Origin: Candidatus Woesearchaeota archaeon
Lineage (GTDB): Archaea > Nanobdellota > Nanobdellia > Woesearchaeales > JAGWAF01
DNA: 51,270 nt
Direction of reading: 5' to 3'
NCBI GenBank assembly: GCA_018303205.1
Contig: JAGVYP010000033.1
Span: forward strand, 1-51,270
Numbering within the stretch: the first letter of the stretch is position 1; each line of letters opens with the position of its first letter. Under the pieces are notes generated by a model, which made no database searches, had not been told where the DNA came from, and saw only the letters and a list, made by a program, of their open reading frames with translations. Shown in pieces: positions 5,780 to 51,270 of the stretch. A program made the position numbers and the translations under genes.

Positions 5780-6568
5780 ATGACAATAAGAGAAATTCAA
5801 CATGAAATTGATGATTCAATACCTGTAGAAAATGTATTGATCTCTGTTTTTGACAAAACTAATTTGGGAGAATTGGCAAATGGATTACTTGAAATAAATC
5901 CTGGTCTCAGAATTTTTTCTACAGGAGGAACATATATCGCATTAAGAGATAAAATTTTATCTCCAGACCAACAAGGATCTTTAATTACTGTTGAAGAATA
6001 TACAGATCTTCCTGAAATAGAAGGTGGTTTAGTAAAAACATTACATCCTTTGTTGCACACAGGATTATTAGGAGAGCGACATAATCCTGCACATCAAGCA
6101 TATTTACAAAGATTAAGTAGAAGAGTAACCTTATTTGGTCCTGATGGACAACCTGTAACTAATCCAGAACCTGGACAAAATTATACAGCAACAGTAACAC
6201 AAGGAAATGGCGTCTTCTTTGATTTAGTTGTTGTTAATTTATATCCTTTTGAAAGTGTATCTGTTGAACCAGGAGCGACATTTGAATCATCAAGAGGAAA
6301 CATTGATATTGGTGGACCAGCAATGTTGCGTGCAGCAGCTAAGAACTTTTTAAGTGCTGCACCTTTTATTGATCCAAAACGTTATGGAGAATTATTAGCT
6401 CATATAAGAGAAAATAGAGGTAGTACTCGTTTTGACTATAGAAGACAACTTGCAGGAGAAGTATTTGAGTTAACAGGTGGTTATGATACAGCAATTTCTG
6501 CTTGGTGGAAAACTCAAACTCCTGAAGCTGCAAGAGCAAGATACACTTTTGCTCAAAGAGGTGCATGA
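5780..6568 (+). CDS. purH: IMP cyclohydrolase domain of PurH (MGS-like), encoded as a separate ORF
   Basis: VLISVFDKTNL, STGGTYIAL, GGLVKTLHPLLHTGLL, FDLVVVNLYPF and NIDIGGPAMLRAAAKNF are all PurH N-domain signatures. The ORF ends at the TGA at 6566-6568. Confidence 0.9.
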   Translation: MTIREIQHEIDDSIPVENVLISVFDKTNLGELANGLLEINPGLRIFSTGGTYIALRDKILSPDQQGSLITVEEYTDLPEIEGGLVKTLHPLLHTGLLGERHNPAHQAYLQRLSRRVTLFGPDGQPVTNPEPGQNYTATVTQGNGVFFDLVVVNLYPFESVSVEPGATFESSRGNIDIGGPAMLRAAAKNFLSAAPFIDPKRYGELLAHIRENRGSTRFDYRRQLAGEVFELTGGYDTAISAWWKTQTPEAARARYTFAQRGA

Positions 6569-34595: not shown

Positions 34596-35141
34596 ATGGT
34601 AACGAAAATCACTTATTTTGTTCATGGAACTACAACCGATAACGAACAGGAAATCTCCTCTGGCTGGTTTGATGTTGATTTATCGGAGTTAGGGGTTCAA
34701 CAATCAGTTGAATTGTGGGATAAAATCAAAGACAAGCATTTTGATGTTGTTTTCTGTTCTGACTTAAAACGGGCTGTGCATTCTGCTGAATTAACCTTTA
34801 AAGATAAAGTAAAAATTATTCCAGACAAACGATTGAGGGAATGTAATTATGGAAAATATAATGCACAGCCCTCTGAAATTGTTGAACCCCCTCAAGAGCA
34901 ATATGTAACGAGGAGATTTCCTGACGGAGAAAGTTACGAGGATGTCAAAATGAGAATAAGTGATTTTCTTGATTTTTTGAAGAAAAATTATGATGGAAAG
35001 TCGGTTGCCATTGTTGCACACAAAGCCCCGCAATTAGCATTAGATGTTTTGTTGAAGAATAAAACTTGGGAACAGGCTTTTGCTGATGACTGGCGAAAAA
35101 CAAAAGCATGGCAACCGGGCTGGGATTATACTTTGGAATGA
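34596..35141 (+). CDS. Histidine phosphatase superfamily (phosphoglycerate mutase-like) protein
   Basis: ITYFVHGTTTDNE..G..DVDLSELGVQQ...VFCSDLKRAVHSAE...AIVAHKAP parallels RHGeT..N...D..Lt..G..QA...sSpl.Ra..TA...vsH, with Val replacing the first Arg. Confidence 0.6.
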   Translation: MVTKITYFVHGTTTDNEQEISSGWFDVDLSELGVQQSVELWDKIKDKHFDVVFCSDLKRAVHSAELTFKDKVKIIPDKRLRECNYGKYNAQPSEIVEPPQEQYVTRRFPDGESYEDVKMRISDFLDFLKKNYDGKSVAIVAHKAPQLALDVLLKNKTWEQAFADDWRKTKAWQPGWDYTLE

Positions 35142-36305: not shown

Positions 36306-37700
36306 ATGATGCCCGATTTTTCATCTTCTACCTTTTATCCAGAAGGAAAAAGATTTTGCTATTTTTATATGCATTACCTCATTGTGCATCAATCTTGTCG
36401 TAAGAAAGGACCTTGGCCACATCACGTAAATGTTCTCGCAGGGTATAAGAATCATCTTGCAGATTGGTATATCAGAGTAGAATCTTATGATCAATTTGAT
36501 GACTATCTTCATCGATTTATGAAAAAAGCTTCTTTATTAGAAGAACTAGAGAAGTACACTCTTAAAATAAAAAATGAAACCGTGAAAAGATTAAAAAAAA
36601 TACCTGATGATACAAGAGAATTAAAAAAGTTAGTTACGTATTATTATCAGCAAATAGAAAATATTATTTTAGTAGCCGGTACTTTACGTTGCGTTGATAG
36701 ATCACTGCTCAAAAAATTCAAGAGCATATTACCTCATGAAGAAGCCATAGCATTAGCGTCCATAAGCGAAAGACCAAGTTTTACGTCAGAAGAAGAAAAA
36801 GCATTGCTTCAACTTGCACTACAACTCAAAAAGCAAAAAAGACAACCCACAAAACAAGATGTTTTACCCATAAAAAACACATTTTGCTGGTCAGGAATGG
36901 GGTACTATAATGAAAAACCAAAAACGATTGAAACTTATCTTATTTTAGTGAAAGAAATGTTAAAAAAAGATCCGCAAAGTATCTTAGAACAAAGAAAGCA
37001 ACATCTCAAAAAAGATCTCACACAAAGAAAAAAACTCATCAGTACGCTTAGTAAAGAAGGAAAATTACTCGCACAAATTGCTGCTACCAGTAGCTTTCTA
37101 AAAGACTATTACAAAGCAAACACCAATGAAATAACCTATCACGGAGAAAAACTCTTTACAAAAATAGCAGAAAAAACCCATACCCCTTCAGAAATGATAA
37201 AAGACCTTCTCCCAGAAGAAACAAATAATTTGCTAGACAAAAAAGAAATAGATTGGACCACTGTCAAAGAACGTATAAAACAAAGTATTTGCATAACAGA
37301 TGAAAAAAAAATAAGCATCCTGATAGGAAAAGAAGCAGAGACCTTTGAAAAAAAATATTTGTCTTGCCAAGATAAAAATAAGAACAGTTTTAAGGGAAGA
37401 ATAGCGTGCAAAGGAAGAGCAAAGGGAAAAGCAAAGATTATTCTTGGTACAAAAGATTTTCACAAACTCAAAAAAGGAGACATCCTTGTAGTGTCCAATA
37501 CAAGCCCTGATTACATACCCATCCTCACCAAGGCAGTGGCTATTATTGCAGAAGAAGGAGGATTAACAGCACATGTTTCTTTAGTGAGTAGAGAATTAAA
37601 CATCCCCTGCATCGTAGGCATCCCTAACATTGTTACTCTCCTTAAAGATAATGAAGAAATAGAAGTTAACGCTAATAAGGGTATCGTGAGGAAATTATAA
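36306..37700 (+). CDS. PpsA/rifampin-phosphotransferase-like protein lacking an ATP-grasp half: helical N-domain plus PEP-utiliser swivel (phosphohistidine) domain, paralog 1
   Basis: The C-terminus GRIACKGRAKGKAKII...GDILVVSNTSPDYIPILTKAVAIIAEEGGLTAHVSLVSRELNIPCIVG...IEVNANKGIV is the PEP-utilisers mobile domain with its conserved His. Confidence 0.8.
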   Translation: MMPDFSSSTFYPEGKRFCYFYMHYLIVHQSCRKKGPWPHHVNVLAGYKNHLADWYIRVESYDQFDDYLHRFMKKASLLEELEKYTLKIKNETVKRLKKIPDDTRELKKLVTYYYQQIENIILVAGTLRCVDRSLLKKFKSILPHEEAIALASISERPSFTSEEEKALLQLALQLKKQKRQPTKQDVLPIKNTFCWSGMGYYNEKPKTIETYLILVKEMLKKDPQSILEQRKQHLKKDLTQRKKLISTLSKEGKLLAQIAATSSFLKDYYKANTNEITYHGEKLFTKIAEKTHTPSEMIKDLLPEETNNLLDKKEIDWTTVKERIKQSICITDEKKISILIGKEAETFEKKYLSCQDKNKNSFKGRIACKGRAKGKAKIILGTKDFHKLKKGDILVVSNTSPDYIPILTKAVAIIAEEGGLTAHVSLVSRELNIPCIVGIPNIVTLLKDNEEIEVNANKGIVRKL

Positions 37701-39136
37701 TGATCAAATGGGCTTGGCAATTTCAACGTATGATGGACCTGTTGCGTAGTCATAGTTTTGCAACAGCATTTGCTAACAATCTCAAAAATCTTGCTTATCT
37801 TACGAGAAATGGTAAAGTGGACTGTTATTGGGATGATGACATGGCAGATAAAAAATCATTAGAATACCTTGCACAAATAAAAGCTTCTCCAAAATTTCTT
37901 CAAGACTGGTCAAAAAATTGTGAGAAAAAATGTAAAGCGTTAGTAGAATTTGCAAAAAATACGCACAAAAAAGACATCAAAAGACTTTCAATCGAAGAAA
38001 TTTACCAACTTTATGATGTATTTGTTTCTTTAAACACCCATGCAGGTTTTTTTGCTTGGTTTATTAGGTGTATTGTTCATAAAGCAGTTCCTGAATTTGA
38101 AAAGCTTTTAAAACAAAAAGTTGGTAATGAGGAAAAATTTCAAAAATATCGAAACATATTAACAGCAACTTCAAAAGAAAGTTTTGTGGGTGAAGAAGAG
38201 CGAGAAATACATGCATTAGCTTTTGAAATTATCGAGAAAAAACTTGAATTAAATGATGATAAGGTAATACAAAAAATAAAAAAACATGAAGCTAAATTCA
38301 AATGGATTCCTTGCAGTTATTATGATGAAGAGCCTTATAAAACCGAATATTTCTTACAAAAAATAAAACATATCATCGATGATCAACAAACAGCAAAAAG
38401 AGTATTACACACAATAAAAGGTATGAGGAAGAAATTACAGCAACAACAAGAAAAAATAATGAAAGAACTAGATTTTGATGAACCAACACAAAATCTTATC
38501 CAGTGTCTCCAAGAATGCGTTTACTATAAAGATTTTGTCAGAGGAGCATTAAACAAAAGCTATTGTTATCTCTATCCTTTTTTTGAAGAATTGGGAAAAC
38601 GATGTAATCTTAGCAAAAGAGAAATTAAATATTTATTTCCAGAGGAAGTGAAAGAAACATTATTCAACAATAAAGACTATATCCCACTTATCAAAGAAAG
38701 AATAAAATTTAATGTTTTGATAAATAAAGATGGTAAATTGATAACGTTGTTTGGAAAAGAAGCGCAAGCATTAGTTGATGAAATTGAACAAGCAACCGTA
38801 AAAGAAGTTACCGAAATTAAGGGCATGTGTGCAAGTCCTGGTTACGCAAAAGCCAAAGTAAAAATAGTCATAGATTTTGGCGATATTCAAAATGAAACCC
38901 ATGACTTTATTCTTGTGGCAAGCATGACAACTCCAGAATATACCGTAGCGATGGAAAAAGCATTAGCTATTGTAACAGACGAAGGCGGAATTACGTGCCA
39001 TGCGGCTATTGTTGCTCGGGAAATGAATAAGCCCTGTGTTATCGGAACGAAAATAGCAACAAAAGTCTTCCATCACGGCGATATCATTGAAGTAGATGCT
39101 AATAAAGGTATCGTGAGAAAGATCCAAAAGGCTTAA
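37700..39136 (+). CDS. Same family, paralog 2
   Basis: The C-terminus is GMCASPGYAKAKVKIV...FILVASMTTPEYTVAMEKALAIVTDEGGITCHAAIVAREMNKPCVIG...IEVDANKGIV, with the His codon at 38999-39001. Its start overlaps the paralog 1 stop (ATAATGA). Confidence 0.85.
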   Translation: MIKWAWQFQRMMDLLRSHSFATAFANNLKNLAYLTRNGKVDCYWDDDMADKKSLEYLAQIKASPKFLQDWSKNCEKKCKALVEFAKNTHKKDIKRLSIEEIYQLYDVFVSLNTHAGFFAWFIRCIVHKAVPEFEKLLKQKVGNEEKFQKYRNILTATSKESFVGEEEREIHALAFEIIEKKLELNDDKVIQKIKKHEAKFKWIPCSYYDEEPYKTEYFLQKIKHIIDDQQTAKRVLHTIKGMRKKLQQQQEKIMKELDFDEPTQNLIQCLQECVYYKDFVRGALNKSYCYLYPFFEELGKRCNLSKREIKYLFPEEVKETLFNNKDYIPLIKERIKFNVLINKDGKLITLFGKEAQALVDEIEQATVKEVTEIKGMCASPGYAKAKVKIVIDFGDIQNETHDFILVASMTTPEYTVAMEKALAIVTDEGGITCHAAIVAREMNKPCVIGTKIATKVFHHGDIIEVDANKGIVRKIQKA

Positions 39137-39172
39137 AAAAAGGAGTAGCTTAAGGCTCTCTGAGGAACACCC

Positions 39173-40168
39173 ATGATTGACATTGACAAGATTATTCAGG
39201 AAAAAGCAAAAGAACGCAAAGCAAAAATCGTTATCGCAGAAGGCTGGGATGAAAGAGTCTTACGAGCAGTACATGATCTCAAAAACATGGCACAGTTTGT
39301 TCTGCTAGGAAATCCAAAAACTATTCTTGAAAATGTAAAAAAATGGAACTTAGACATAGGAAAAACAGAAATCATCGACCATCTTAAAACAAAAGAAAAA
39401 GAAGAACTCGCACAAAAACTCTTTGAGCTGAGAAAAGAAAAAGGATTAACACTTCCAGAAGCACAAGAACTCGTCAAAGATGTCAACTATTTTGGCTGCA
39501 TGATGGTCTTTACAGGAAAAGCTGAAGGAGTAGCAAGCAGCGTCATTTGCCCAACAGCAGCAATCATGAGACCCGCACTGCAAATCTTAAAGAAAAAAGG
39601 AACCTTAGCAAATGAGTTTTCTGTGATGAAAGACAAAAAAAACAATCGCGTCTTATTCATGACAGACGGCTCATTAAATATTAATCCAAGCTCAGAAGAT
39701 CTTGCAAACATCGCAAAGAACTCTGCAGAGTTTGTACAATCACTGGATGTTACTCCCAAAGTTGCTTTTCTGAGCTTCTCGACCAAAGGCAGCGGAGGAG
39801 ATGGTCCTGAAGTCATGATTGTGAGAAAAGCAACAAAACTCTTCAAAGAAAAAATGCCTTCTGTTATTTGTGACGGAGAAATGCAATTTGACGCAGCAAC
39901 AAATCCTTATGCTGCTGGTAGAAAATGTCCTGATTCCCCTCTTAAAGGAGATGCTAATATTCTTGTGCTTCCCAACTTAACTGCGGGAAATATTCTTTTC
40001 CATGCTCTCATGCAAGTTTCAGACGTAATCATGGCCTATGGTTTTATTCTCGGAACAGCAAGACCAGTGACCATCTTGGGAAGAAGTACCTCTTTGGAAA
40101 TCGTCAAAGGAGCATTACTAGCTAACATGATGGAATGCAACTTAAAAGCAGATGAAAAACATTCTTGA
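39173..40168 (+). CDS. pta: Phosphate acetyltransferase (Pta, PTA_PTB family)
   Basis: IVIAEGWDERVLRAV, ELRKEKGLT..A, YFGCMMV..GKAEGVAS, FMTDGSLNINPS, VAFLSFSTKGSG, DGEMQFDAA and LVLPNLTAGNILFH track the Pta consensus along its full length. Confidence 0.9.
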   Translation: MIDIDKIIQEKAKERKAKIVIAEGWDERVLRAVHDLKNMAQFVLLGNPKTILENVKKWNLDIGKTEIIDHLKTKEKEELAQKLFELRKEKGLTLPEAQELVKDVNYFGCMMVFTGKAEGVASSVICPTAAIMRPALQILKKKGTLANEFSVMKDKKNNRVLFMTDGSLNINPSSEDLANIAKNSAEFVQSLDVTPKVAFLSFSTKGSGGDGPEVMIVRKATKLFKEKMPSVICDGEMQFDAATNPYAAGRKCPDSPLKGDANILVLPNLTAGNILFHALMQVSDVIMAYGFILGTARPVTILGRSTSLEIVKGALLANMMECNLKADEKHS

Positions 40169-41612
40169 AATAATAAGAAAAAGAAATTGGCACAGACAAG
40201 GAGGCGCTGCAGTACTCCATCTCATGGTTACACCACTGTTTCCAGCAGTAGAAGGCCTCTATCAGGAAACAGGAGTAAGTTACGGTATGACTGTTGCATA
40301 TTCTCAAAAAGGCTTAGGAAACTGGTACCTCGAAAAAACTTATTTGAAAGAAATGGGAGACCATTTTTTGAAAAAAACAAAAAAAGAATTGCAAGAAATA
40401 AAAAAAGAATGGAAAAAAAGAGACAACATTTTTCAAAAAGAAGTACAAAAAATATTGTCAATGGATCTTAAGAAACTTGATGAGAAAAAAATATTGCAAA
40501 TCTACAAAAAATTTTATGAGATCAATTACTCCATGTGGATTCCCTACGTGTTTTGCGATGCCTACGACCTTACCGGAGAAAACATCATCAAAGAAAGACT
40601 AGAAAAACAAAAAATAACATTAACTGATCAAGAAATTCACATAATGCTCGCTACCGAAGAGCCCTCGTGGTCACAACGAGAAAAAATAAATCTCCTCAAG
40701 TTGAACATTGAAGCAAGCAAGAAAAAGAATTTTTTACACGATAACCTCTTTCTTGCAAAAGTGCAAAAACATCGTGATACCTATTACTGGTATAAGAATG
40801 ACTATCAAAAAGTATGGAGTTTAGATCTCAACTATTTTCTTGAAAAAATACAAAAAGGAAAAGAACATCCTCAAGCTTGCAAGCAAGAACTTGAAAAAAT
40901 TGAACAAGAACAGCAACAAACCAAAAAAAATAAAAAATTAATAGTCAAACAAAAGAAAATTCCTAAAAACACAGTAGAACTCTTTGACTTCTTTGCTTTA
41001 ATCACCCAATGGAGGGATTATAGAAAAAGAAACAATCAGATCAGCAATGAAGTACTTGTTACTTTGCTCAAAGCATTAGGAGAAAAAAGAAAAATACCTC
41101 TTGCAGCTATGTTATACACACTCCCTCAAGAAGTACTGCAAGAGACCATTCCTAACAAAGAAATACTACAAAAAAGAGAGGAAGAGGGATGCATACACCT
41201 TCTTATAAGAGAAGAGAAACCCTTATTGTTAGAAGGAAAAGAAGTAAATGACTTCAAAAAAGAACTTGATAAAAAATTATTTAATGAGATAAAAGAATTA
41301 AAAGGAATGGTAGCATTTAGTGGAAAAGTAAAAGGGATCGTAAAAATAATAAGACAATCAAGCGACTTTCAAAAATTTAAACAAGGAAACATTCTCGTAG
41401 CACAAATGACAAGACCTGAATATCTTCCTTTAATGGAAAAAGCTGCAGCAATAATCACAGACGAGGGAGGAATTACGTGCCACGCTGCTATCGTTGCAAG
41501 AGAATTAAAAAAAACTTGCATCGTCGGAACGGGAAATGCAACTGACATCTTAAAAGATTGTATGGAAGTTGAAGTGGATGCTGAAAAGGGAGTAGTGAAG
41601 ATTATACACTAA
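40152..41612 (+). CDS. Same family, paralog 3
   Basis: The C-terminus is GMVAFSGKVKGIVKII...GNILVAQMTRPEYLPLMEKAAAIITDEGGITCHAAIVARELKKTCIVG...VEVDAEKGVV. It overlaps the pta 3' end by 17 nt. Confidence 0.85.
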   Translation: MKNILEIIRKRNWHRQGGAAVLHLMVTPLFPAVEGLYQETGVSYGMTVAYSQKGLGNWYLEKTYLKEMGDHFLKKTKKELQEIKKEWKKRDNIFQKEVQKILSMDLKKLDEKKILQIYKKFYEINYSMWIPYVFCDAYDLTGENIIKERLEKQKITLTDQEIHIMLATEEPSWSQREKINLLKLNIEASKKKNFLHDNLFLAKVQKHRDTYYWYKNDYQKVWSLDLNYFLEKIQKGKEHPQACKQELEKIEQEQQQTKKNKKLIVKQKKIPKNTVELFDFFALITQWRDYRKRNNQISNEVLVTLLKALGEKRKIPLAAMLYTLPQEVLQETIPNKEILQKREEEGCIHLLIREEKPLLLEGKEVNDFKKELDKKLFNEIKELKGMVAFSGKVKGIVKIIRQSSDFQKFKQGNILVAQMTRPEYLPLMEKAAAIITDEGGITCHAAIVARELKKTCIVGTGNATDILKDCMEVEVDAEKGVVKIIH

Positions 41613-42094
41613 TCAATCTTGAACTTTGCTAATTCTTCAGGAAGAGCATTTCTAAGATAATTCTTATCCTGTCTTAATAACATTTTGTAGTAACCATCAT
41701 CAGAAACTATAGGTACCTCTTCTACAAGTTTTATACGATAAGGTACTCCCCTTGTATCCTGTTCACTTTCAATCTCTTTTATCGCTCTTCGCCAATCACT
41801 TAAACCATAAACAGTAACTAATAATTTTCGTCCTTCAAGAAGATGTGATCTTGCGCGATGATGACCTCCATCTGTTATGTTATTAACGTCAGGAGAAGGG
41901 TACATAGGAATCAAAATATAAGTTCTTCTGTCAAGTTGACAAACAGGTACTGCTGGAAATGTATCTCCTGCTTGAATACCCCTTCTCATGCTTGCTAAGA
42001 TTCTATCATATATCCTGTTTTGCCAACCGAGTAAAACAATGTTTTCTAAAGGTAATGCTTTTTCTCCGAGTTGAAAAGACATTTTCTTGCTCAT
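41609..42094 (-). CDS. ParB/sulfiredoxin-like (ParBc) domain protein; start uncertain
   Basis: NITDGGHHRARSHLLEG matches the ParB-N DGxHR..A motif. I chose the ATG at 42094 (MSKKMSF) because the ORF-track start at 42223 leaves only 14 nt to the divergent gene. Confidence 0.45.
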   Translation of the reverse strand: MSKKMSFQLGEKALPLENIVLLGWQNRIYDRILASMRRGIQAGDTFPAVPVCQLDRRTYILIPMYPSPDVNNITDGGHHRARSHLLEGRKLLVTVYGLSDWRRAIKEIESEQDTRGVPYRIKLVEEVPIVSDDGYYKMLLRQDKNYLRNALPEELAKFKID

Positions 42095-42237
42095 ATACCT
42101 TTGAATCGAAGTTGGTATATAAAACTGAGCTAGGGCAAAATAGGCAAATACACCGTCTTGTAATTCTTCAAAGTCCAAAAGAAGCACTGGACATTCGCAA
42201 ATAAGGTATATAAACCAGTTCATGTCTTCTTTCTATT

Positions 42238-43068
42238 ATGGAAAAACATAGTAATCTCGTAGTTTTTGACGATAAAAAAATAAGAAGAATATGGCATAAT
42301 GATCAATGGTACTTTTCTGTAGTTGACATTATAGGAAGTTTAGCAGAAAGTTCTGATGCACGAAATTACTGGAAAGTACTTAAACATAGGCTACTAAAAG
42401 AAGGAAGCGAGGTGGTTACAAAGTGTAACCAACTGAAACTCCAAGCTTCTGATGGTAAATATTATGAATCTGACTGTGCTAATACAGAAACCCTTTTTCG
42501 TCTCATACAATCAATACCTTCTCCGAAAGCTGAGCCTTTCAAACTCTGGCTTGCTCAAGTTGGTTATGAGAGAGTTCAGGAAATTGAAAATCCAGAGCTA
42601 GCTCAAGAAAGGATGAAAGAACTTTATAGACAAAAAGGTTACAGTGAAGAATGGATTGAAAAAAGAGTAAGGGGAATAGCAGTACGACAAGAGTTAGTCG
42701 ATGAGTGGAAAAAGAGGGATGTAAAAAATATTGAATTTGGTATTTTAACCAATGAGATTAGTAAAGCTGCTTTTGATAAAACAGTTGACGAATACAAACA
42801 ACACAAAAAACTCAAAAAAGAAAATCTCAGGGATCATATGAACGATTTAGAATTGATTTTTACCATGCTGGGGGAAGCATCTACTACCACTATAGCAAAA
42901 GCAAGAGATGCAAAAGGTTTTGATCATAATAAGGCAGTTGCTAGAAAAGGTGGTAGTATTGCTGGAGAAGCAAGAAAGCAATTGGAAATCGCGTCAGGAA
43001 AGTCTATCGTTTCTCAAGAAAATTATCTTGATGAGCCAGAAAAAGTAAAGAAGAAAAGACTCAAATAA
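42238..43068 (+). CDS. Bro-N domain / DinD-like (phage antirepressor-type) protein
   Basis: IRRIWHNDQWYFSVVDIIGSL...ARNYWKVLKHRL...SDGKYYESDCANTETLFRLIQSIPSPKAEPFKLWLAQVGYERVQEIENPELA is the widespread Bro-N/DinD-like family pattern. Confidence 0.75.
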   Translation: MEKHSNLVVFDDKKIRRIWHNDQWYFSVVDIIGSLAESSDARNYWKVLKHRLLKEGSEVVTKCNQLKLQASDGKYYESDCANTETLFRLIQSIPSPKAEPFKLWLAQVGYERVQEIENPELAQERMKELYRQKGYSEEWIEKRVRGIAVRQELVDEWKKRDVKNIEFGILTNEISKAAFDKTVDEYKQHKKLKKENLRDHMNDLELIFTMLGEASTTTIAKARDAKGFDHNKAVARKGGSIAGEARKQLEIASGKSIVSQENYLDEPEKVKKKRLK

Positions 43069-43112
43069 CTGCAGTAACCTTTATAAAGTGGCATACTCCT
43101 CTTTGAATTACC

Positions 43113-44621
43113 GTGGATTACCTCAAAGGCTTGCTGAAAAAAAAACTAGAAAAGTGGAATCATAAAAAATGGTATCATCAAAGATTTGATGGTGCACCCT
43201 ATTTCTTACATTATATCGCAGAAGCTGAAATCAACACACACAAAGAACGAAAGAAAGGAGGAAATTTTACTGTTCATTATTGTTTCTTCCATAATGACAA
43301 AGCTGATTGGTATATTGCCATGGAAGATATTGAGAAAGTCTATACGAGTATCCTACAACAGGGAAAAAAGAATCCAAAAATCAGCAAGGATTTTATGGAC
43401 CAATGGAAACATGATGAAAAAGCATTTTATCAAATCTGTGCTGAAATAGAAAAAAAAGATATTAAAAAATTATCTGATCAGAAACTTATACAGTTTCATA
43501 ATACCTTCATGGAAATTACGTTAAAGAGAAATAGTTCCAGCTCCCTTATTGACGGATTTGCACTGGGTACAGACGAACTTATTGCAGAAGAAATAAAGAA
43601 AGTGTATGAACAAAGTACTATAAAGACAAGCATGCGTTTTACAGAACTTTTCTCCGCACTTACAGCTCCCATTCACCTATCTTTTATCAATGACGCTGAA
43701 GTTGCACTTCTAGAACTTGCGATACAGGTACAAAAAAAACCAGAAAAGAAAAAGCAACTGATAACACAACATCAAAAAAAATATTTTTGGATCCATAACA
43801 ATTACGTTGCTGATAATATCTTAAGTGCTGATTATTTTGAGAAAGAAATAGAAAACATCTTCAAAACAAAAATAGAAATTCCTAAAGAGATAAAAAAAAT
43901 AAAAAATATCCCTAAAGAAAACAAAAAAAGAAAACAAGAGCTTATCAAACAATTAGAATTGAGTAACGAGCTCAAATTGCTTATTACCATTTCTGAAGAT
44001 TTCACATCCTGGCAGGACGAGAGAAAAAAAGCAACGTTTTGGACAACACACTATTTTAGTATCCTTTTACAAGAAATAGGAAAAAGAACAAGAATTCCCC
44101 TTGAAGAAATAAAATACCTTTCCCCCAGAGAGGTAAACATGATCTTTCAACAAAAACCGGAAAGAAAAATGCTACAAGAACGAAGAAAAAATAGTGTTTT
44201 TTTCTGGGATGAACAAGGACACGAAGCAATGATCGGACAAGATGTGGAAGAAATACGCAAAGCCATTCTTGGAGAAATGAATTTTTCAGATCTTAATGAT
44301 TTTCGCGGATTAACTGCCTGCCTTGGTATGGCAAGAGGTCCAGTAAAAGTGGTAAAAAGTGCACAAGACATTGACAAAGTAAAAAAAGGAGATATCCTCG
44401 TAGCAGTAATGACCAGGCCAGATTATATCCCTGCAATGAGAAGAGCTGCTGCTATTGTGACTGACGAAGGAGGAGTAACTTGTCATGCTGCAATTGTTTC
44501 AAGAGAACTAAGAATACCCTGTATCATTGGAACAAAAATAGCAACAAAAGTTTTGAAAGATCACCAACACGTAGAAGTCAATGCTAATCATGGTAGAGTA
44601 ATAATTCTCAAAAATGATTGA
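43113..44621 (+). CDS. Same family, paralog 4 (GTG start)
   Basis: The C-terminus is GLTACLGMARGPVKVV...GDILVAVMTRPDYIPAMRRAAAIVTDEGGVTCHAAIVSRELRIPCIIG...VEVNANHGRV. TTTATAAA lies ~30 nt upstream. Confidence 0.85.
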   Translation: MDYLKGLLKKKLEKWNHKKWYHQRFDGAPYFLHYIAEAEINTHKERKKGGNFTVHYCFFHNDKADWYIAMEDIEKVYTSILQQGKKNPKISKDFMDQWKHDEKAFYQICAEIEKKDIKKLSDQKLIQFHNTFMEITLKRNSSSSLIDGFALGTDELIAEEIKKVYEQSTIKTSMRFTELFSALTAPIHLSFINDAEVALLELAIQVQKKPEKKKQLITQHQKKYFWIHNNYVADNILSADYFEKEIENIFKTKIEIPKEIKKIKNIPKENKKRKQELIKQLELSNELKLLITISEDFTSWQDERKKATFWTTHYFSILLQEIGKRTRIPLEEIKYLSPREVNMIFQQKPERKMLQERRKNSVFFWDEQGHEAMIGQDVEEIRKAILGEMNFSDLNDFRGLTACLGMARGPVKVVKSAQDIDKVKKGDILVAVMTRPDYIPAMRRAAAIVTDEGGVTCHAAIVSRELRIPCIIGTKIATKVLKDHQHVEVNANHGRVIILKND

Positions 44622-44672
44622 TCCAAAAAAAGAATTGTTCAAGTGGGGGCCTATTGATAGCAGACCTATATT

Positions 44673-45977
44673 TTGTGGATTCATGAAGAGAAAATAACCT
44701 TTGTTACTGAATATCAGCAGCTATATGATCAAGGAGAGTTATCTTTCAAAAAATTTATTCTGGATGATCAACAATTTAAAAAAAACTATAGCGAATGGAA
44801 AAGTCTTGTTGATGAAATCCTTTCTTTTTTTGCTACCGTAACGAAAAAATCATTAGCTAAAAAATCTAAAGAAGAGCTTGCTCAGTCCTATACTCAATTC
44901 CTGAAGATAGTCTGCCTTTTTTGGACTGTCGGTTTACTTCCAGAAATAGCTAACTGGGGCGGGGAGCAATTGCTCAAAAGAAAATTGCAAAAAATTCTTT
45001 CTAAGAATAATTTTATTCGTGTTTTTGAGCGTTTGACAGCTCCGCAAGATTATTCTTTTTATCAAGATGAAGAAATTGATTTGTTCAATATAAAATTAGG
45101 TAAAAGAACGTTAAAAGAACATCAAGAAAAGTTTTTTTGGATGCTCAACAGTTATCATCATACAAAAGTTTTGCCCATCTCTTATTTTCAGGAGCGTTTA
45201 GATACTTTATCACTTGGAGAAGCAAAAAAAAGATTAAAAACTTTACAATCTTTCCCAGAAGAAACAAAACAAGCAAAAAAAAAGATTATAAAAAAGTATC
45301 ATTTATCAAATGAGGTTGCAAAGATAGCACAGCGATTGTCATTTTGTATCTGGTGGCAAGATCTACGTAAAAAATATATTTTCATGATCAATCACCAACT
45401 TGATCTCTATGTAGATGCGATAACGGTTCATTTTAAAATAGATGCTCACAAACTGCATTATTATACGGTTGAAGAATTAAAAATCTTATTAGAAAAAAAT
45501 AAACAGATATCTCAAGAGATGATAAAAAATCGTTTGAATTATTTTGTTGAAATATACCATCAAAAAGAAAATAGTGTTGAACATTCTTTTGGAATGCGAT
45601 GCAAACAGAAGATACAACCTTTTTTAAAACAAACATTTGATCCTGCACAAAAGAAACTAAAAGGGTTAGTAGTCAGTTCAGGAAAAAAAGTGCAGGGAAA
45701 AGCAAAAATAATTTTATCTCCGAAAGATTTTTCTAAGATGCAAAAAAATGATGTTTTGGTATGTCCTATGACTGCTCCTGATTATATTGTAGCAATGCGC
45801 AAAGCTGTTGCTATCGTTACTGACGAAGGTGGTATGACGTGCCATGCTGCAATTGTTGCAAGAGAGTTAGGTATTCCTTGTATTGTTGCAACCAAAATTG
45901 CCACAAAGCTTTTAAAGGATAATGATCTTGTTGAAGTAGACACTGAGTTGGGGATTGTGAGGAAATTATCTGAGTAA
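44673..45977 (+). CDS. Same family, paralog 5; the N-terminus appears frameshifted (true start probably the ATG at 44614)
   Basis: The C-terminus is GLVVSSGKKVQGKAKII...NDVLVCPMTAPDYIVAMRKAVAIVTDEGGMTCHAAIVARELGIPCIVA...VEVDTELGIV. The family N-terminal motif is encoded in another frame at 44614-44673. Confidence 0.75.
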   Translation: MWIHEEKITFVTEYQQLYDQGELSFKKFILDDQQFKKNYSEWKSLVDEILSFFATVTKKSLAKKSKEELAQSYTQFLKIVCLFWTVGLLPEIANWGGEQLLKRKLQKILSKNNFIRVFERLTAPQDYSFYQDEEIDLFNIKLGKRTLKEHQEKFFWMLNSYHHTKVLPISYFQERLDTLSLGEAKKRLKTLQSFPEETKQAKKKIIKKYHLSNEVAKIAQRLSFCIWWQDLRKKYIFMINHQLDLYVDAITVHFKIDAHKLHYYTVEELKILLEKNKQISQEMIKNRLNYFVEIYHQKENSVEHSFGMRCKQKIQPFLKQTFDPAQKKLKGLVVSSGKKVQGKAKIILSPKDFSKMQKNDVLVCPMTAPDYIVAMRKAVAIVTDEGGMTCHAAIVARELGIPCIVATKIATKLLKDNDLVEVDTELGIVRKLSE

Positions 45978-46370
45978 CTGCATAAGCTCAGTTGTAGAAA
46001 TAATACTTACTTCATCCTGTTCTTTTAATTTTTTATCGTTTGACCAAATAGGGCATTTTAATTTCATTGCTAATGCAAAATAAATGCTATCACCGTTATC
46101 AGGAGAGATAGTTTTTGCTTTTTCTATGTAATCTTCATATTCTTCTTCTGGTATTATAACAATGATATCTTGGAGTATATGCAAGATCTGGATAAGTTCT
46201 TCTCTTGTTCGTTTTGTTTTTTCTTGAAGATAATTTATGTATTTAAGATATTCTTCACTAAAAAAATCAGGGGAATAAAGTTGTATATTTTTTTCAAAGA
46301 GAAGTTTTGCATTTGTCCCTTCTTTGATAAGTGCAGAAAAAATAATATTTGCGTCAATAATAAAGTTCAT
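45966..46370 (-). CDS. PIN-domain protein (toxin)
   Basis: MNFIIDANIIFSAL...IWSNDKKL. It is 134 aa and overlaps the upstream antitoxin gene by 4 nt. Confidence 0.7.
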   Translation of the reverse strand: MNFIIDANIIFSALIKEGTNAKLLFEKNIQLYSPDFFSEEYLKYINYLQEKTKRTREELIQILHILQDIIVIIPEEEYEDYIEKAKTISPDNGDSIYFALAMKLKCPIWSNDKKLKEQDEVSIISTTELMQLLR

Positions 46371-46594
46371 TGTAAAGCTTTATGTCTTTTTGCCATCCCT
46401 GCTTTGACTTTTCTTCCCAGTTCTATAGCATCTTCTTCTGTGAGAGTGCTATCCTTAGTAAATTCTCGAAATTGTCTTAACAAGGAAAGTTTCTTCTGAA
46501 TAGCAGATCTCGCAACAGCGCTCCAATTAATATCTTGGAATTTGTCCATTTCTTGTTTCATCTCTTCAGGTACTGCCAATGTTATACTTACCAT
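46367..46594 (-). CDS. Ribbon-helix-helix (CopG-like) antitoxin
   Basis: MVSITLAVPEEMKQEMDKFQDINWSAVARSAIQKKL is an RHH pattern. The start is set at the internal ATG at 46594 rather than 46663. Confidence 0.55.
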   Translation of the reverse strand: MVSITLAVPEEMKQEMDKFQDINWSAVARSAIQKKLSLLRQFREFTKDSTLTEEDAIELGRKVKAGMAKRHKALQ

Positions 46595-46701
46595 AAAAAC
46601 ACCTCCGTATATTACGTTTATTACGTGTAATACGTTTAAATATTTAAATCTTTCGGTTTGCACTCTAAAACATTTAAAAACTCAAGCCTTTTCTTTAGGC
46701 T

Positions 46702-47814
46702 ATGAATCAAAAAGAACGCATTAAAGCAGCAGTGCAAGAACTTCTCTCAACAGATAAAATGACGATAGAAGTACCCATCGATAATCATCATATCAATATT
46801 TTGCCTTTGCCAAAGTTATGGTATAACAAATCTATTTTTTTCATTCAAAAGTGGATGGTTCCCAGTCATTTCAAAAATGCGCTGATGAGAACAACAGGCG
46901 CAAAGATTGGCAAGGATTGTTGTTTGCCTCATTATCATATTTGGGATGCATATTTTCCTGAATTGATTCAACTAGGTGAGGGAGTGCTTATTGGAGGTTT
47001 AACTACTCTAAAAGCGCATGAAATCAAAGAAAATAAGCTTATTCTTGGAAAAATCATTTTGGAAAAAAGAACCATGACAGGAGGAGATACCATCCTTCAT
47101 CCTGGAACTATTATTAGAGAAGGAGGCATGACAGGATTTCGCACCGATTTTCAAGGAGAAATAAAAAAAGGAGAAATCTGGATGGGCAATCCTCCCTTCT
47201 TGTTTAGCACCTTAGACCAAGCAGGAATAGACAAATACTTCAAAAAAAAAGAAATGCACCACAAAGAATATTATAAAGATGCACGAAAACAAATTAATGC
47301 ATTCTTGAAAGACAAGAATCAGATGTTCTTTAAACTGTATTATGGTGGAAAAAGAGCAGGACCGGGAAATGACTGGTGGAGAGCAAGACCTGTCTGGAAA
47401 ATTTGGTATAATGGTATTTTAGTTGAACTTTCAAGACTCATGCCAACAAGTGGTTTACGAAAATTATGTTATCGTCTCATGGGTGCAACCATTGGCAAAA
47501 ATGTCTATTTGGGAAAAAATGTTATCTTTGATCATATTTATGGGGATTTAGTTACGTTAGAAGATGATGTTGTTTTAGAAGATGATACGTATGTAGATGG
47601 GCATTCTTATACTATGTCACAAACTGTTTTCGGAAGAGTGCTTGTCAAAAAAGGAGCAAGAGTAAAAAAAGGCGCAATGCTTTACTGTGGAACCCTTATT
47701 GGAGAAGGAAGCATTATTGAACCTTACAGCTTAGCACAAAAAGAAATTCCTGCAGGGGAAGTTTGGGGTGGAATGCCTGCAAAGTTTATCAGAAAGGTAC
47801 ATGAAAAAGAATAA
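46702..47814 (+). CDS. Tandem left-handed beta-helix (hexapeptide-repeat) acyltransferase-like protein
   Basis: Two similar halves: GAKIGKDCCL...LGEGVLIGG...IWMGNPP and GATIGKNVYLGKNVIF...VLEDDTYVDG...GEVWGGMPAKFIRK. Confidence 0.55.
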   Translation: MNQKERIKAAVQELLSTDKMTIEVPIDNHHINILPLPKLWYNKSIFFIQKWMVPSHFKNALMRTTGAKIGKDCCLPHYHIWDAYFPELIQLGEGVLIGGLTTLKAHEIKENKLILGKIILEKRTMTGGDTILHPGTIIREGGMTGFRTDFQGEIKKGEIWMGNPPFLFSTLDQAGIDKYFKKKEMHHKEYYKDARKQINAFLKDKNQMFFKLYYGGKRAGPGNDWWRARPVWKIWYNGILVELSRLMPTSGLRKLCYRLMGATIGKNVYLGKNVIFDHIYGDLVTLEDDVVLEDDTYVDGHSYTMSQTVFGRVLVKKGARVKKGAMLYCGTLIGEGSIIEPYSLAQKEIPAGEVWGGMPAKFIRKVHEKE

Positions 47815-48084: not shown

Positions 48085-48873
48085 ATGATGGAAAAAAAAG
48101 AATTAAAAAAAAGATTAGCTTCTCTTGACTTATTTCTTATTGATATCGATGATACGATTGCTCCGCACATGACCGTAGGTATAGCAAATACTCTTGCACG
48201 TGATGTTATCAGTTCTTGTTTTTTTAATGAAAAATTAGAAAACCCAGACCATATTATTACTACAAAAGAAAATGTTTCTTTTATTTTGAAATCTTTTTTT
48301 AAAAATAAAATAGTATTCACAAAAAATAAAAAACAGTATAAAGATCTTTTTTTTGTTTTATATTATGGAATAAAACTTCATATTTTAAAATTATTATTCA
48401 ATCTTACCAATGCGTCAAAAATATATCATGTAAGTAATGAATGCTTAATCAATAATTTTCTTCTTTTGTTGAAAAAAACAAATACTAATATAACAAAATA
48501 TCAGTATAATAATCAACAATTACAAAAGAGTTTGTTTCCCGGTGTTAAGGAGTTTCTTGAAAAAATAAAAACAACAAAAATTGCGATGAGCCAAAGTTTT
48601 GATGTTGGAACATATAAGCAATTGCTTCATTTCGATAAAATAATTGATAACAACATAAATAAAATACAAATCAAAAACAGCAACGACAAATATAGAATCG
48701 CAAAAAATTTGTCCAAAGACAAAAAAGAGATTGGCATTCTGATGAATGACTATGAAGATGAAGAGTTGCTCAAGTTGTCAAATGTAAAGTTGATTATTAT
48801 GAAAAGTCCTCCTTGGAGATTAAAGAAAAAAGCGGATGTGATTATCCAGAAAGATTATGAATATCTTCTTTAA
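48085..48873 (+). CDS. HAD-superfamily hydrolase-like protein
   Basis: DLFLIDIDDTIAP carries the DxDxT motif I. There is a late acidic motif, ILMNDYEDEE. The sequence is very AT/Lys/Asn-rich. Confidence 0.45.
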   Translation: MMEKKELKKRLASLDLFLIDIDDTIAPHMTVGIANTLARDVISSCFFNEKLENPDHIITTKENVSFILKSFFKNKIVFTKNKKQYKDLFFVLYYGIKLHILKLLFNLTNASKIYHVSNECLINNFLLLLKKTNTNITKYQYNNQQLQKSLFPGVKEFLEKIKTTKIAMSQSFDVGTYKQLLHFDKIIDNNINKIQIKNSNDKYRIAKNLSKDKKEIGILMNDYEDEELLKLSNVKLIIMKSPPWRLKKKADVIIQKDYEYLL

Positions 48874-48891
48874 TTGCCATCCATTATTATT

Positions 48892-51270
48892 TTATTTTTT
48901 ATAAGGTATAACTTGTTTTCCTAAATCGATCACGTGCAATACTCGTTGTTTTCCTTTTGCAGTAAACCGATAGAGGTCGATATTAACACCCATCTGGTCA
49001 GTTCCTTCAGTTCCCAGCGTAGTCACAACAAGTTCATTACTAAAACGAAAGTAAGCACCTCCGACATCACCACCATAACGACCAAATCTCATACTGCTAA
49101 TTCCACTGGGAGCACTGTATCTCCTATCATCTTCTGCAGTTGCATGAAGGTGTGCTCTGAAAAGCGGAAAATATCCCTCTTGTAATTGAGAGTCCGATCT
49201 TGCTGACTCATCATTCGTAACCTGTTGTATAAGGTTTAATCCTGGATTAAAAGGAATTTCCTTTATGCTATTGGGTTTATTTGCTACGAAAACAAGTTTT
49301 CCATCTTGGTAATATACGTCAAAACTGAGTTCTGTTGGGAAATGTTTACCAGTAGCACCTTCTTTATATTCGTTGATATCACTCCAAGCTAGATTACCCA
49401 TAAATGTTTTTGCTTTGTCTATTGATAGTGCATCATAAAGTAGTTTTATTTGTAAGAGTTCAAAATGAGAAAGAAGAGAAAGATCTGGTCTTTCTTGATG
49501 TTCATCTGTTCCATTGGAATCAGTTCTCACAACAGGTGCAGTGTCGTATATTTTTTGTACTGCTTTTTCTAGTTCTCCACGATTTTGGTAGGTTGCAAGA
49601 AGCGTTTTATCAGTTTGCAAAGCAGCAACTAAACCCATGTCATATCTTGAAAGTTTTCCATGATCCTCATAAATTTCTTTAATAAGGTTTGTATCTATGC
49701 TCTCTCCACGTTCTACAAACCATGCAAGAGTGTCTTTTTCAAAAACGACATATCTTGCACGTTTGTCTTTCATAACAAAAGTTCTTAGTTTTTCATCTGC
49801 AGCTATAGGAAGAAGATGAGCTATTTCAACATCACTAAGATCAGTATTTCCATTAGCAACCAATCCTTCTAAGAATGCTCGACCATCATAAGCTCCTAAT
49901 CTGCTCAATAAGTCCAGCTCTGAGAGTACCATACCCTCTCTTTGAGCAATATGTTCTTGATACAGAGTTACATATTCTTCTCCTCCTTGTCTTGCGAGAT
50001 GAAGCAAATAAGTAGCACTTTCTTGTCCAAAAACACCTTCTAATGGGCCATACAATCGTTCCATAAGCTGGCTGAGACCTCCTAGATTAAACTCAGCAGT
50101 GTCTAAATAAACAAGAAATGACTTCTGTGCTTCTAGCTCAGCTAAGAGAACCAAATCTAAAGAATTCTCTAGCTTACCACCAAAGGGGCTCTCTACCATC
50201 CCGCTTATACTGGTAGCGTGAAGATCCTCTTTTAAGAATGTTAAAAAATCAAGAGAAACAACATCAAGAGCATCAATATCTTTTCCGTAAAAAATATTTT
50301 TTCCAAAATGTTCTTTACAATAGTCTATTTTTTCTTTTAATGCATCAGTAGTTGCTGCTTGAAAACCATAACGTTCCATAAAAAAATCATAGTCAGCATT
50401 GGGATTTTGAGGTGTAGCAAAACCTGGCGATAGATTACTATCTAATGTAAATAGTCCATCAAAAATATGAAGTCCAAATGCTTGATAACGATCGTAAAGA
50501 GCAAACATTTTTTCAGAAGTAAAAAATTCAAAATTTCTTTGCCCTCGTTCAAAGCGTCCTTTTCTATCTCTAACTTCATGTTCAGCTAGTTCACGATAAT
50601 CTTCTAATTGTGGTTCACGCGCTTTGCCTGTTTTTTCATCTATAAATTTCTCAGGATGTGTCTTAAACAATTGAGAATCCCATGCAAATCCTTTCCGTTG
50701 TTTTTCTTCAACTGTGAGTGTTGGTTCTTGCAATCCAAAAGCGATACTCCCTAAAGTATGGAATATGCGGTCATAATCTGTTGCCGCTGTTTTAACATAA
50801 TTAAATAATCGTTTTAATTTGTCTATTTGTTCATCACTAAGGTTTGATATAGCTTCAAAGTATATATCTGAAATTTCGTTTTCAAGTCTATGAAGAAGAT
50901 TTATTTTTGCTGATGGTTGATCATACCCATCTTCAGTATGCTTTGGTTCTGGTAACACGTCATAGAATTCAGCTAAAATCTCTAAACCACGAAAATGAGC
51001 TTCTTGTCTTAACTGTGTAAGGTATTCTTCACTAAAATGATCAGGAGATTCTGGGGTAGGTTTTTTTGTATCATACCCAAATCGATTTTTGAGTAAATAG
51101 TGCAGTTGTTCTTCAGAAACAAGTACTTGCTCTAAACTAGGTTTAACAAGCTGTGTTATATCTTGGTTACCTTCATCATCTGAATTATCATATACCTGTG
51201 CCTGTCCAGCTTGTTGTGAAGTATCATGAGTACTATTCGGAACAGTATCAGCTGCACATCCTGCAAGTGC
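48892..51270 (-). CDS. Large hypothetical lipoprotein, N-terminus cut by the window edge
   Basis: The frame stays open from the GTG at 50958 up to nt 51270. Translation there begins ALAGCAADTVPNSTHD, i.e. an L-A-G-C lipobox at the edge. I recognised no family in the remaining ~790 aa. Confidence 0.6.
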   Translation of the reverse strand, partial: ALAGCAADTVPNSTHDTSQQAGQAQVYDNSDDEGNQDITQLVKPSLEQVLVSEEQLHYLLKNRFGYDTKKPTPESPDHFSEEYLTQLRQEAHFRGLEILAEFYDVLPEPKHTEDGYDQPSAKINLLHRLENEISDIYFEAISNLSDEQIDKLKRLFNYVKTAATDYDRIFHTLGSIAFGLQEPTLTVEEKQRKGFAWDSQLFKTHPEKFIDEKTGKAREPQLEDYRELAEHEVRDRKGRFERGQRNFEFFTSEKMFALYDRYQAFGLHIFDGLFTLDSNLSPGFATPQNPNADYDFFMERYGFQAATTDALKEKIDYCKEHFGKNIFYGKDIDALDVVSLDFLTFLKEDLHATSISGMVESPFGGKLENSLDLVLLAELEAQKSFLVYLDTAEFNLGGLSQLMERLYGPLEGVFGQESATYLLHLARQGGEEYVTLYQEHIAQREGMVLSELDLLSRLGAYDGRAFLEGLVANGNTDLSDVEIAHLLPIAADEKLRTFVMKDKRARYVVFEKDTLAWFVERGESIDTNLIKEIYEDHGKLSRYDMGLVAALQTDKTLLATYQNRGELEKAVQKIYDTAPVVRTDSNGTDEHQERPDLSLLSHFELLQIKLLYDALSIDKAKTFMGNLAWSDINEYKEGATGKHFPTELSFDVYYQDGKLVFVANKPNSIKEIPFNPGLNLIQQVTNDESARSDSQLQEGYFPLFRAHLHATAEDDRRYSAPSGISSMRFGRYGGDVGGAYFRFSNELVVTTLGTEGTDQMGVNIDLYRFTAKGKQRVLHVIDLGKQVIPYKK

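Follow-up and report, generated by a model that had tools for sequence, protein, structure and literature searches.

An array of predicted rifampin-phosphotransferase-like dikinase subunits in a woesearchaeotal genome and its relatives in DPANN and CPR genomes

In the two-component dikinases PpsAB, CreHI and HpeHI, a substrate-binding domain of the rifampin phosphotransferase (RPH) type and a phosphohistidine swivel domain share one protein, and the ATP-grasp domain resides on a second. Both components are needed, and HpeH alone catalyses the second phosphotransfer, between substrates (PMC12167813). Here we describe an array of five genes with the domain content of the first, H-type component in a 51,270-nt stretch of a Candidatus Woesearchaeota genome (contig JAGVYP010000033.1, forward strand; hereafter the window). 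The array occupies positions 36306-45977, and its five open reading frames (ORFs) with a PF00391 swivel domain are numbered paralogs 1 to 5 in plus-strand order. The paralogs are likely to be the H-type halves of two-component RPH-like dikinases, charged most likely by a separate PPDK_N ATP-grasp protein using ATP.

An earlier note on this DNA, made from the sequence alone, knew of no described system with such a layout. This was too strong, as PpsAB, CreHI and HpeHI share exactly the same split (PMC12167813). The known pairs, from Thauera/Aromatoleum (PpsAB), Corynebacterium (CreHI) and Rhodococcus (HpeHI), comprise one H and one I subunit, the ATP-grasp protein being about 315-345 aa long, and they belong to ordinary bacteria and act on phenolic substrates. 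The window, in contrast, carries five diverged H-type genes (relatives up to about 11) per zero or one I gene, its relatives also encode polyproteins of 2-8 modules, and the hosts of the family are DPANN archaea and candidate phyla radiation (CPR) bacteria. The window swivel, unlike that of the known pairs, keeps the threonine of the PpsA-type T-x-H motif.

Among single-polypeptide enzymes, RPH of Listeria (RPH-Lm; 5FBS/5FBT/5FBU, 5HV1) resembles the window proteins in having a substrate domain followed by a swivel, aligns with them over the active-site motif and is the best whole-protein structural match; it differs in its N-terminal ATP-grasp, absent from the paralogs, identity is only 15-17%, and no evidence points to rifamycin as a substrate of the paralogs. 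PpsA and PPDK follow the same dikinase logic, and both the window swivel and the ATP-grasp of the relatives are closest in sequence to archaeal PpsA. Their swivel, however, is central, between an N-terminal ATP-grasp and a C-terminal PF02896 barrel, whereas the window swivel is C-terminal with no barrel, and the fold of the window substrate domain is a different one. The prodiginine ligases PigC and RedH are three-domain, RPH-like proteins whose NCBIfam models partly align into the window N-domains, but they are single polypeptides with an ATP-grasp, and the window scores lie far below the cut-offs. The alpha-glucan, water dikinase (GWD) has the order substrate region, His domain and C-terminal nucleotide-binding domain, which is also found in relatives at L114 and in a 785-aa protein of L002 (L numbers denote fetched relative loci, and P numbers relative proteins). 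GWD differs in its starch-binding modules and polymer substrate, and the fused form occurs in none of the window proteins.

With genomes of about 1 Mb, DPANN archaea and CPR bacteria are missing many routes of biosynthesis. Relatives of the window nevertheless give up to about 20 kb of contiguous DNA to the family, in the form of arrays (about 5-11 paralogs) or of single polyproteins (2836-3761 aa). The kind of enzyme is a known one, and the new part is the organisation of many modules per ATP-grasp together with the distribution in DPANN and CPR. A literature search on phosphoenolpyruvate (PEP)-utilising (PF00391) proteins of DPANN and CPR and on Pta of Woesearchaeota returned no description of many-module arrays or polyproteins.

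Domain content and predicted fold of the paralogs

The five ORFs described in the earlier note are all present on the plus strand at exactly the coordinates claimed (Table 1). Each has a single PF00391 match at its extreme C-terminus (E 6.5e-22 to 2.4e-26), which is its only significant Pfam domain and coincides with the swivel block recognised earlier by eye. The catalytic His lies in a GGxT[CA]H motif in every paralog, the CAT codon at 38999-39001 having been named correctly, and all five carry the swivel motif T/S-x-x-G-G-x-x-x-H of H-type subunits. Pfam finds neither PF01326 nor PF02896 in any of the five, in agreement with the absence of ATP-grasp and TIM barrel judged by eye. Ordinary PpsA-like kinases, the outcome that would have overturned the earlier interpretation, are ruled out by the lack of PPDK_N in all paralogs. 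The view of these proteins as substrate-binding plus swivel modules devoid of ATP-grasp and TIM barrel is borne out by Pfam, by tblastn and by the model of paralog 4 described below.

Identity among the paralogs is 27-31% over the whole protein and about 23% within the N-domain. Pairwise BLAST E-values of 1e-31 to 1e-59 indicate genuine homology rather than chance resemblance. Two landmarks had been proposed for the N-domain. The first, KKYFWIHNNY and its counterparts, is real, with W and Y invariant across the five paralogs. The second, W-[QR]-D-x-R-K, holds in part: the Asp is invariant, and the full motif is exact in three paralogs, with LKDYYK and YKDFVR in the other two.

No Pfam model covers the N-domain. 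An AlphaFold2 model was built for paralog 4 only, from 59 homologues (pLDDT 92.4, pTM 0.87); the other four paralogs show homology to it with E-values of 1e-47 to 1e-59. In a Foldseek search against the PDB, the six best matches to the model are all Listeria RPH (E 2e-13 to 9e-12, TMq up to 0.53), with the RPH-Lm entries 5hv1, 5fbu and 5fbt at the top and the whole of the query aligned, whereas PDB matches other than RPH cover the swivel only. This full-length structural match leads us to regard the N-domain as a substrate-binding domain of the RPH type. Profile comparisons point the same way. The family profile aligns with RPH residues 615-866, and the NCBIfam models of RPH, PRK06241, PigC and RedH reach deep into the N-domains, paralog 4 residues 99-501 corresponding to positions 415-821 of 827.

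The profile alignment also places Q301-D302-E-R-K305 of paralog 4 on R666-E667-Y-P-K670 of RPH. In RPH these three charged residues are in contact with the catalytic His and with the phosphate being transferred, and the replacements R666A and E667A abolish rifampin inactivation (PMC4844700). At the equivalent positions, as given by sequence-profile alignment only, paralogs 1 to 5 have K/K/R/Q/Q for R666, Asp throughout for E667 and K/R/K/K/K for K670. As far as model and alignments can tell, the N-domain of the paralogs is a substrate-binding domain of RPH type in which the phosphotransfer site can be recognised.

The window proteins reach none of the NCBIfam cut-offs for PpsA-alpha-like, RPH, PigC or PpsA models. 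They score 51-63 bits against the RPH model NF041857 (cut-off 999) and 37-43 bits against NF000283 (cut-off 1700), and PpsA models match them only at positions of about 310-460. Scores against the PRK08296 group are 46-101 bits, below cut-offs of 578-730, and the window proteins form a branch separate and deeply diverged from the PpsA-alpha-like models. At 50% identity, a profile of the five window N-domains recovers no fewer than 4345 clusters (E <= 1e-3), and many of these contain several modules. In a search with paralog 4, relatives of about 500 aa in which PF00391 is the sole domain number more than 6800 and come from Woesearchaeota, Nanoarchaeota and Patescibacteria.

In other arrays, a separate reciprocal-best orthologue exists for each of the window paralogs, which are therefore old, distinct subfamilies. 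Identity to these orthologues is 57-63% for paralog 4 (CPR bacteria included), 42-46% for paralog 5 and 31-37% for paralogs 1-3. Paralog 4 is the most conserved, with orthologues at 57-66% identity in DPANN as well as CPR. Recent tandem duplication is rejected by these separate orthologues together with the low identity among the paralogs themselves. Paralog 4 is under purifying selection, with a ratio of non-synonymous to synonymous substitution rates (dN/dS) of 0.12 against one strain of 97.6% nucleotide identity, and its decay into a pseudogene is rejected on the same ratio. That strain (contig L094), which matches the window over positions 42652-44590, shares the Bro-N gene and paralog 4, diverges at 44590 and has a 108-aa gene and a metallophosphatase in place of paralog 5, an arrangement also seen at L001. 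Array composition thus varies even between close strains.

A set of CPR orthologues of paralog 4 (P0078, P0080, P0084-P0099), about 585 aa long, consists of an N-terminal XRE-type helix-turn-helix (HTH) followed by a complete paralog-4-type protein, which suggests, from domain composition, that some of the fused members double as transcription regulators. Together with the TrmB regulators adjoining several arrays, these many HTH fusions would fit paralogs acting as phospho-carriers or sensors in a His-phosphorelay that regulates proteins or transcription, in place of enzymes acting on small molecules. We regard such a role as extremely improbable for the paralogs, since the RPH-type phosphotransfer motif is kept in the N-domain of all five, the relatives of established function (RPH, HpeH and further ones named in PMC12167813) all act on small molecules, and the HTH fusions are limited to one subfamily.

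A candidate ATP-grasp partner in related genomes

Recurrence of the paralog array in related genomes was proposed earlier as a check, and arrays turn out to be widespread in related loci. Profiles were built for the N-domain, the swivel and the PPDK_N (PF01326) ATP-grasp (GRASP) and run on the fetched loci, with 10 kb of flank on arrays; in the contig profile search with the family alignment, only the first approximately 35 loci are family members, the rest being mostly ordinary PpsA with a conserved swivel pattern. Family genes number 10 plus one fused at L002, 6 each at L003, L005 and L025, 9 at L004, 8 at L010, about 11 at L011, 11 at L012 and 7 at L016, and further arrays were seen beyond these nine. 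Typical arrays at L011, L020, L022, L029, L035 and other loci sit in third-party annotation (TPA) metagenome-assembled genomes (MAGs) labelled 'uncultured Gammaproteobacteria', a label that may be wrong given the gene content.

The earlier note proposed an orphan ATP-grasp protein as one possible phosphate donor, and the relatives back this strongly. Stand-alone GRASP genes of about 312-345 aa lie inside or beside arrays at L011, L023, L025, L089 and L093, and others accompany family genes at L095-L098, L104, L109 and L116-L118. The CPR operon L089 consists of GRASP, two modules, a HAD gene and a third module; L093 is a woesearchaeotal locus. Viewed from the other side, proteins of about 315 aa with PF01326 alone are retrieved by the GRASP profile in their thousands, with examples in Patescibacteria, Woesearchaeota (P0250) and Micrarchaeota (P0283). 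In a metagenome scan, 12 stand-alone GRASP loci had sufficient flank, and family genes were present at 10-11 of them. Across DPANN and CPR, identity among the GRASP proteins is 54-69%, and a Lys aligned with RPH Lys22, a VAVRSSAT segment and a QSRPITT segment are invariant among them.

Fusions connect the same partners. GRASP and swivel family proteins are joined in P0055 and at L015, L019, L031, L034, L037, L101, L108 and L114. The order GRASP-N-swivel is found in P0055 (an 837-aa protein from the paralog 4 search, with PPDK_N and the whole paralog-4 sequence), L037 and L101, and the order N-swivel-GRASP in L114 and in the last gene of L002. The recurrent linkage and these Rosetta-stone fusions are a classic signature of subunits that work together.

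Modules are also joined to one another, in polyproteins of 1198, 1307, 1752 and 1994 aa and, in two woesearchaeotal MAGs, in far longer chains. A single 3761-aa ORF at L019 (6212-17497) contains one GRASP and eight modules, and a single 2836-aa ORF with six modules at L093 (5817-14327) starts 48 nt after the GRASP gene. A strict search for the pattern GG[IVL]T[CSQ]HAAI finds it intact in seven of the eight modules of the former and five of the six of the latter. One ATP-grasp appears to serve several modules. Many more multi-module proteins, of 983-2648 aa, are present in a representative library.

For the paralogs as H-type dikinase halves we infer the following cycle, in which charging would take place in trans. 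A separate PPDK_N-type ATP-grasp, the I-type subunit of about 315 aa encoded outside the window, would bind ATP, and the swivel His of each paralog would be charged from it with release of AMP and Pi. The charged swivel would swing back to its own N-domain, where the Asp common to all five and the basic residues around it ([KRQ]-D-x-x-[KR], cf. RPH R666-E667-x-x-K670) would position the phospho-His, and the phosphate would move to a substrate held in the diverged cleft particular to each paralog. A single ATP-grasp would serve several modules of differing specificity. If one ATP-grasp does charge many substrate-specific modules, the family would form a one-to-many phosphoryl distribution system that extends the recently recognised two-component dikinases; it would imply that these symbionts contain a large number of phosphorylated metabolites yet to be characterised, and give a tractable entry to what their hosts supply.

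Several observations weigh against this scheme. Tblastn with an ATP-grasp domain, the GRASP profile and Pfam on the other ORFs checked all failed to reveal an ATP-grasp gene in the 51-kb window, and GRASP is visible in only about 5 of 16 arrays within the 10-kb flanks. Only one of the five paralogs keeps Arg at the position of RPH Arg666, the others having Gln or Lys. The NCBIfam models of the PRK08296 group, of PpsA-alpha/HpeH type, match only the swivel, over their last approximately 100-130 positions. Dikinase activity of the DPANN/CPR family is itself a prediction from sequence and model.

The missing ATP-grasp might be that of the ordinary PEP synthase or PPDK of the cell, or of a fused family member, in place of a dedicated stand-alone protein. 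The window swivels are far closer to archaeal PEP synthase (8a8e, E 2e-45) than to RPH (5fbs, E 1e-24) and carry the PpsA-type motif GGxTCHAAIVSRE, and the sole ATP-grasp seen in L002 is fused to a family member. We nevertheless consider this source of phosphate very unlikely, as a dedicated and highly conserved stand-alone GRASP family is physically linked to arrays, and the window has no PpsA or PPDK gene.

The Pta-like gene and the acetyl-phosphate question

A gene of the PTA_PTB superfamily (39173-40168) is tightly packed between paralogs 2 and 3, and the earlier note offered acetyl phosphate made by its product as a second candidate donor, charging the modules without any ATP-grasp. The absence of an ATP-grasp from the window favours this, as does the order paralog-pta-paralog, whose recurrence had been proposed as a check and which is indeed repeated in L002 and L005. 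Yet of about 16 arrays only 3 contain pta, those of the window, L002 and L005, which are all Woesearchaeota-like judging from the names of their best hits, and the gene is missing from all 80 loci reached from the GRASP side. Shared ancestry accounts for part of the recurrence, because the paralog-4 orthologues of L002 and L005 are 61-63% identical to that of the window and the named ones belong to Woesearchaeota. L002 also holds both pta and, at the end of its array, a family member containing PF01326; the two are not alternatives there, and pta is therefore no replacement for the ATP-grasp.

The Pta-like proteins themselves depart from the canonical enzyme. Three loci were compared: window 39173-40168, L002 15720-16706 and L005 1-705. 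Four solved Ptas read L-S-R-G-[CS]-x-x-E-D where the window copy reads L-G-R-S-T-S-L-E-I (LGRSTSLEIV in the active-site region, against canonical LSRGCSxEDI), L002 reads LGRSTPVDT and L005 LGRSNSAES. In the Pta of M. thermophila (MtPta), Asp316 is the proposed base and Ser309 stabilises the substrate, and replacements of Ser309 or Arg310 strongly affect kcat. The position of Ser309 is occupied by Gly in all three copies and that of Asp316 by Ile, Thr and Ser in the window, L002 and L005, respectively; Arg310 is kept. The window protein scores 252.7 against TIGR00651 (cut-off 311.2) and 271.6 against PRK09653 (cut-off 310), below both equivalog cut-offs. It can be assigned to the PTA_PTB superfamily, and from its residues canonical Pta activity is not assured. 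Malic enzymes in the same alignment have a PTA-like domain whose motif, VLQRTTTVDG, resembles LGRST... Moreover, we know of no precedent for acetyl phosphate directly phosphorylating the swivel His of a PEP-utilising enzyme. Sparse occurrence, replaced residues and scores below the cut-offs together speak against acetyl phosphate as the donor, and we hold charging by this route to be highly improbable.

A more economical reading of the gene neighbourhood is that the Pta-like enzyme would work with the adjacent acyltransferase, through either acetyl-CoA supply or the processing of acyl phosphates. The two genes occur together in the window, L002 and L005, with the hexapeptide acyltransferase alone in L004, and the best matches of the latter are O-acetyltransferases. 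Carried further, one or more of the modules would turn carboxylates into acyl phosphates, from which the Pta-like enzyme would form acyl-CoA for the acyltransferase, or Pta would merely supply acetyl-CoA. Such a route is compatible with charging by an ATP-grasp, and transfer from phospho-His to a carboxylate is energetically plausible by our estimate from standard phosphoryl-transfer potentials. We consider it unlikely, as the gene neighbourhood of one lineage is its sole basis, the Pta-like active site is non-canonical, and to our knowledge no RPH-type dikinase forms an acyl phosphate.

The arrays, the Pta-like enzyme and the hexapeptide acyltransferase might also constitute a new metabolite-activation pathway of ultra-small symbionts with Pta as a mechanistic participant, a proposal we regard as doubtful. 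The modules would receive their phosphate from one ATP-grasp or, in this lineage, by way of acyl-phosphate chemistry, and would convert scavenged metabolites to phosphorylated or acyl-phosphate intermediates, which the Pta-like enzyme and the acyltransferase would pass on. Were this so, the many modules per ATP-grasp would represent a metabolite-capture system specific to DPANN and CPR.

Array continuity and neighbouring genes

Table 1. Features of the array and its surroundings in the window
Feature	Position	Strand	Length (aa)	Catalytic His (nt)	N-domain motif (nt)	Remarks
Histidine phosphatase, His_Phos_1	34596-35141	+	181			Upstream of array; same family adjoins CPR array L089
Paralog 1	36306-37700	+	464	His423 in GGLTAH (37572-37574)	LKDYYK (37098-37115)	Predicted RPH-type substrate-binding domain ~1-357, swivel 362-464
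Paralog 2	37700-39136	+	478	His434 in GGITCH (38999-39001)	YKDFVR (38525-38542)	N-domain and swivel; start overlaps paralog 1 stop
Pta-like PTA_PTB protein	39173-40168	+	331			PF01515, E 1e-84; GAGGA 6 nt upstream of start
Paralog 3	40152-41612	+	486	His444 in GGITCH (41481-41483)	WRDYRK (41010-41027)	N-domain and swivel
Minus-strand ORF	41609-42223	-	204			No family match; between paralogs 3 and 4
Bro-N domain protein	42238-43068	+				Between paralogs 3 and 4
Paralog 4	43113-44621	+	502	His458 in GGVTCH (44484-44486)	WQDERK (44010-44027)	Most conserved subfamily; chosen for modelling
Paralog 5	44673-45977	+	434	His391 in GGMTCH (45843-45845)	WQDLRK (45354-45371)	Length counted from TTG 44673
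PIN-domain toxin	45966-46370	-				Between paralog 5 and acetyltransferase gene
Partner of PIN toxin	46367-46663	-	98			Between paralog 5 and acetyltransferase gene
Double left-handed beta-helix (hexapeptide) O-acetyltransferase-like protein	46702-47814	+	370			Conserved at L002, L004 and L005 arrays
262-aa protein	48085-48873	+	262			No Pfam match; DIDDT motif near N-terminus (by eye); homologues adjoin L002 and L004 arrays

The junctions read earlier as signs of translational coupling are present at the 5' side of the array: the overlap of paralogs 1 and 2 at 37698-37702 (TAA/ATG), the 36-nt gap ahead of pta with GAGGA at 39162-39166, and the 17-nt overlap of pta with paralog 3. Packing is accordingly tight from paralog 1 to paralog 3, but the coupling claimed for the whole array does not extend to paralogs 4 and 5. 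Coupling with pta is limited to paralogs 1-3 because the minus-strand ORF and the Bro-N gene split paralog 3 from paralog 4. The junction sequence ATGATTGA at 44614-44621 is likewise present, but its ATG does not share the frame of paralog 5, the ORF of which begins at TTG 44673. The ATG at 44614 overlaps the stop of paralog 4 and opens a 27-codon ORF (MIDPKKELFKWGPIDSRPIFCGFMKRK) in a different frame; gain or loss of 1 nt in a run of T (T4, 44671-44674) or of A (A7, approximately 44625-44631) would fuse it to paralog 5. Either paralog 5 truly starts at TTG 44673, or it carries a frameshift or assembly indel, in which case a longer N-terminus beginning at ATG 44614 would be possible.

The 204-aa ORF with the Bro-N gene (41609-43068) and the PIN toxin pair (45966-46663) are probably not part of the system. 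Both insertions splitting the array look mobile, and the L005 array also contains a PIN/VapB pair.

Phosphatase families recur beside arrays (His_Phos_1, HAD, Nudix and LMW-PTP), as do methyltransferases, a pyridoxal phosphate (PLP) enzyme and TrmB regulators. An association of the window histidine phosphatase with the array is possible. Judging by neighbourhood, the acetyltransferase, the Pta-like protein and the phosphatases, with the methyltransferases, HAD and Nudix proteins of relatives, probably process substrates or products of the modules. A known defence system was rejected as an identity for the locus, the sole PADLOC match being to a restriction endonuclease model at 19 bits.

Elsewhere, a gene for ribosomal protein S6e, identified by eye, and a purine operon lie in the window; the named best hits are from Woesearchaeota and Nanoarchaeota, which makes the host an archaeon of DPANN type. 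Large minus-strand ORFs lie at 24272-30901 (2209 aa), 31209-33215 (668 aa) and 48892-50958 (688 aa), the latter two with no Pfam match. Within the purine operon, a 484-aa ORF (954-2408) has no Pfam match, resembles PurM only weakly and in part (TIGR00878, E 4e-11, well short of the cut-off) and may be a very diverged AIR synthase. The signature of AICARFT/IMPCHase (PurH) is split across the adjacent ORFs 5780-6568 and 6572-7939.

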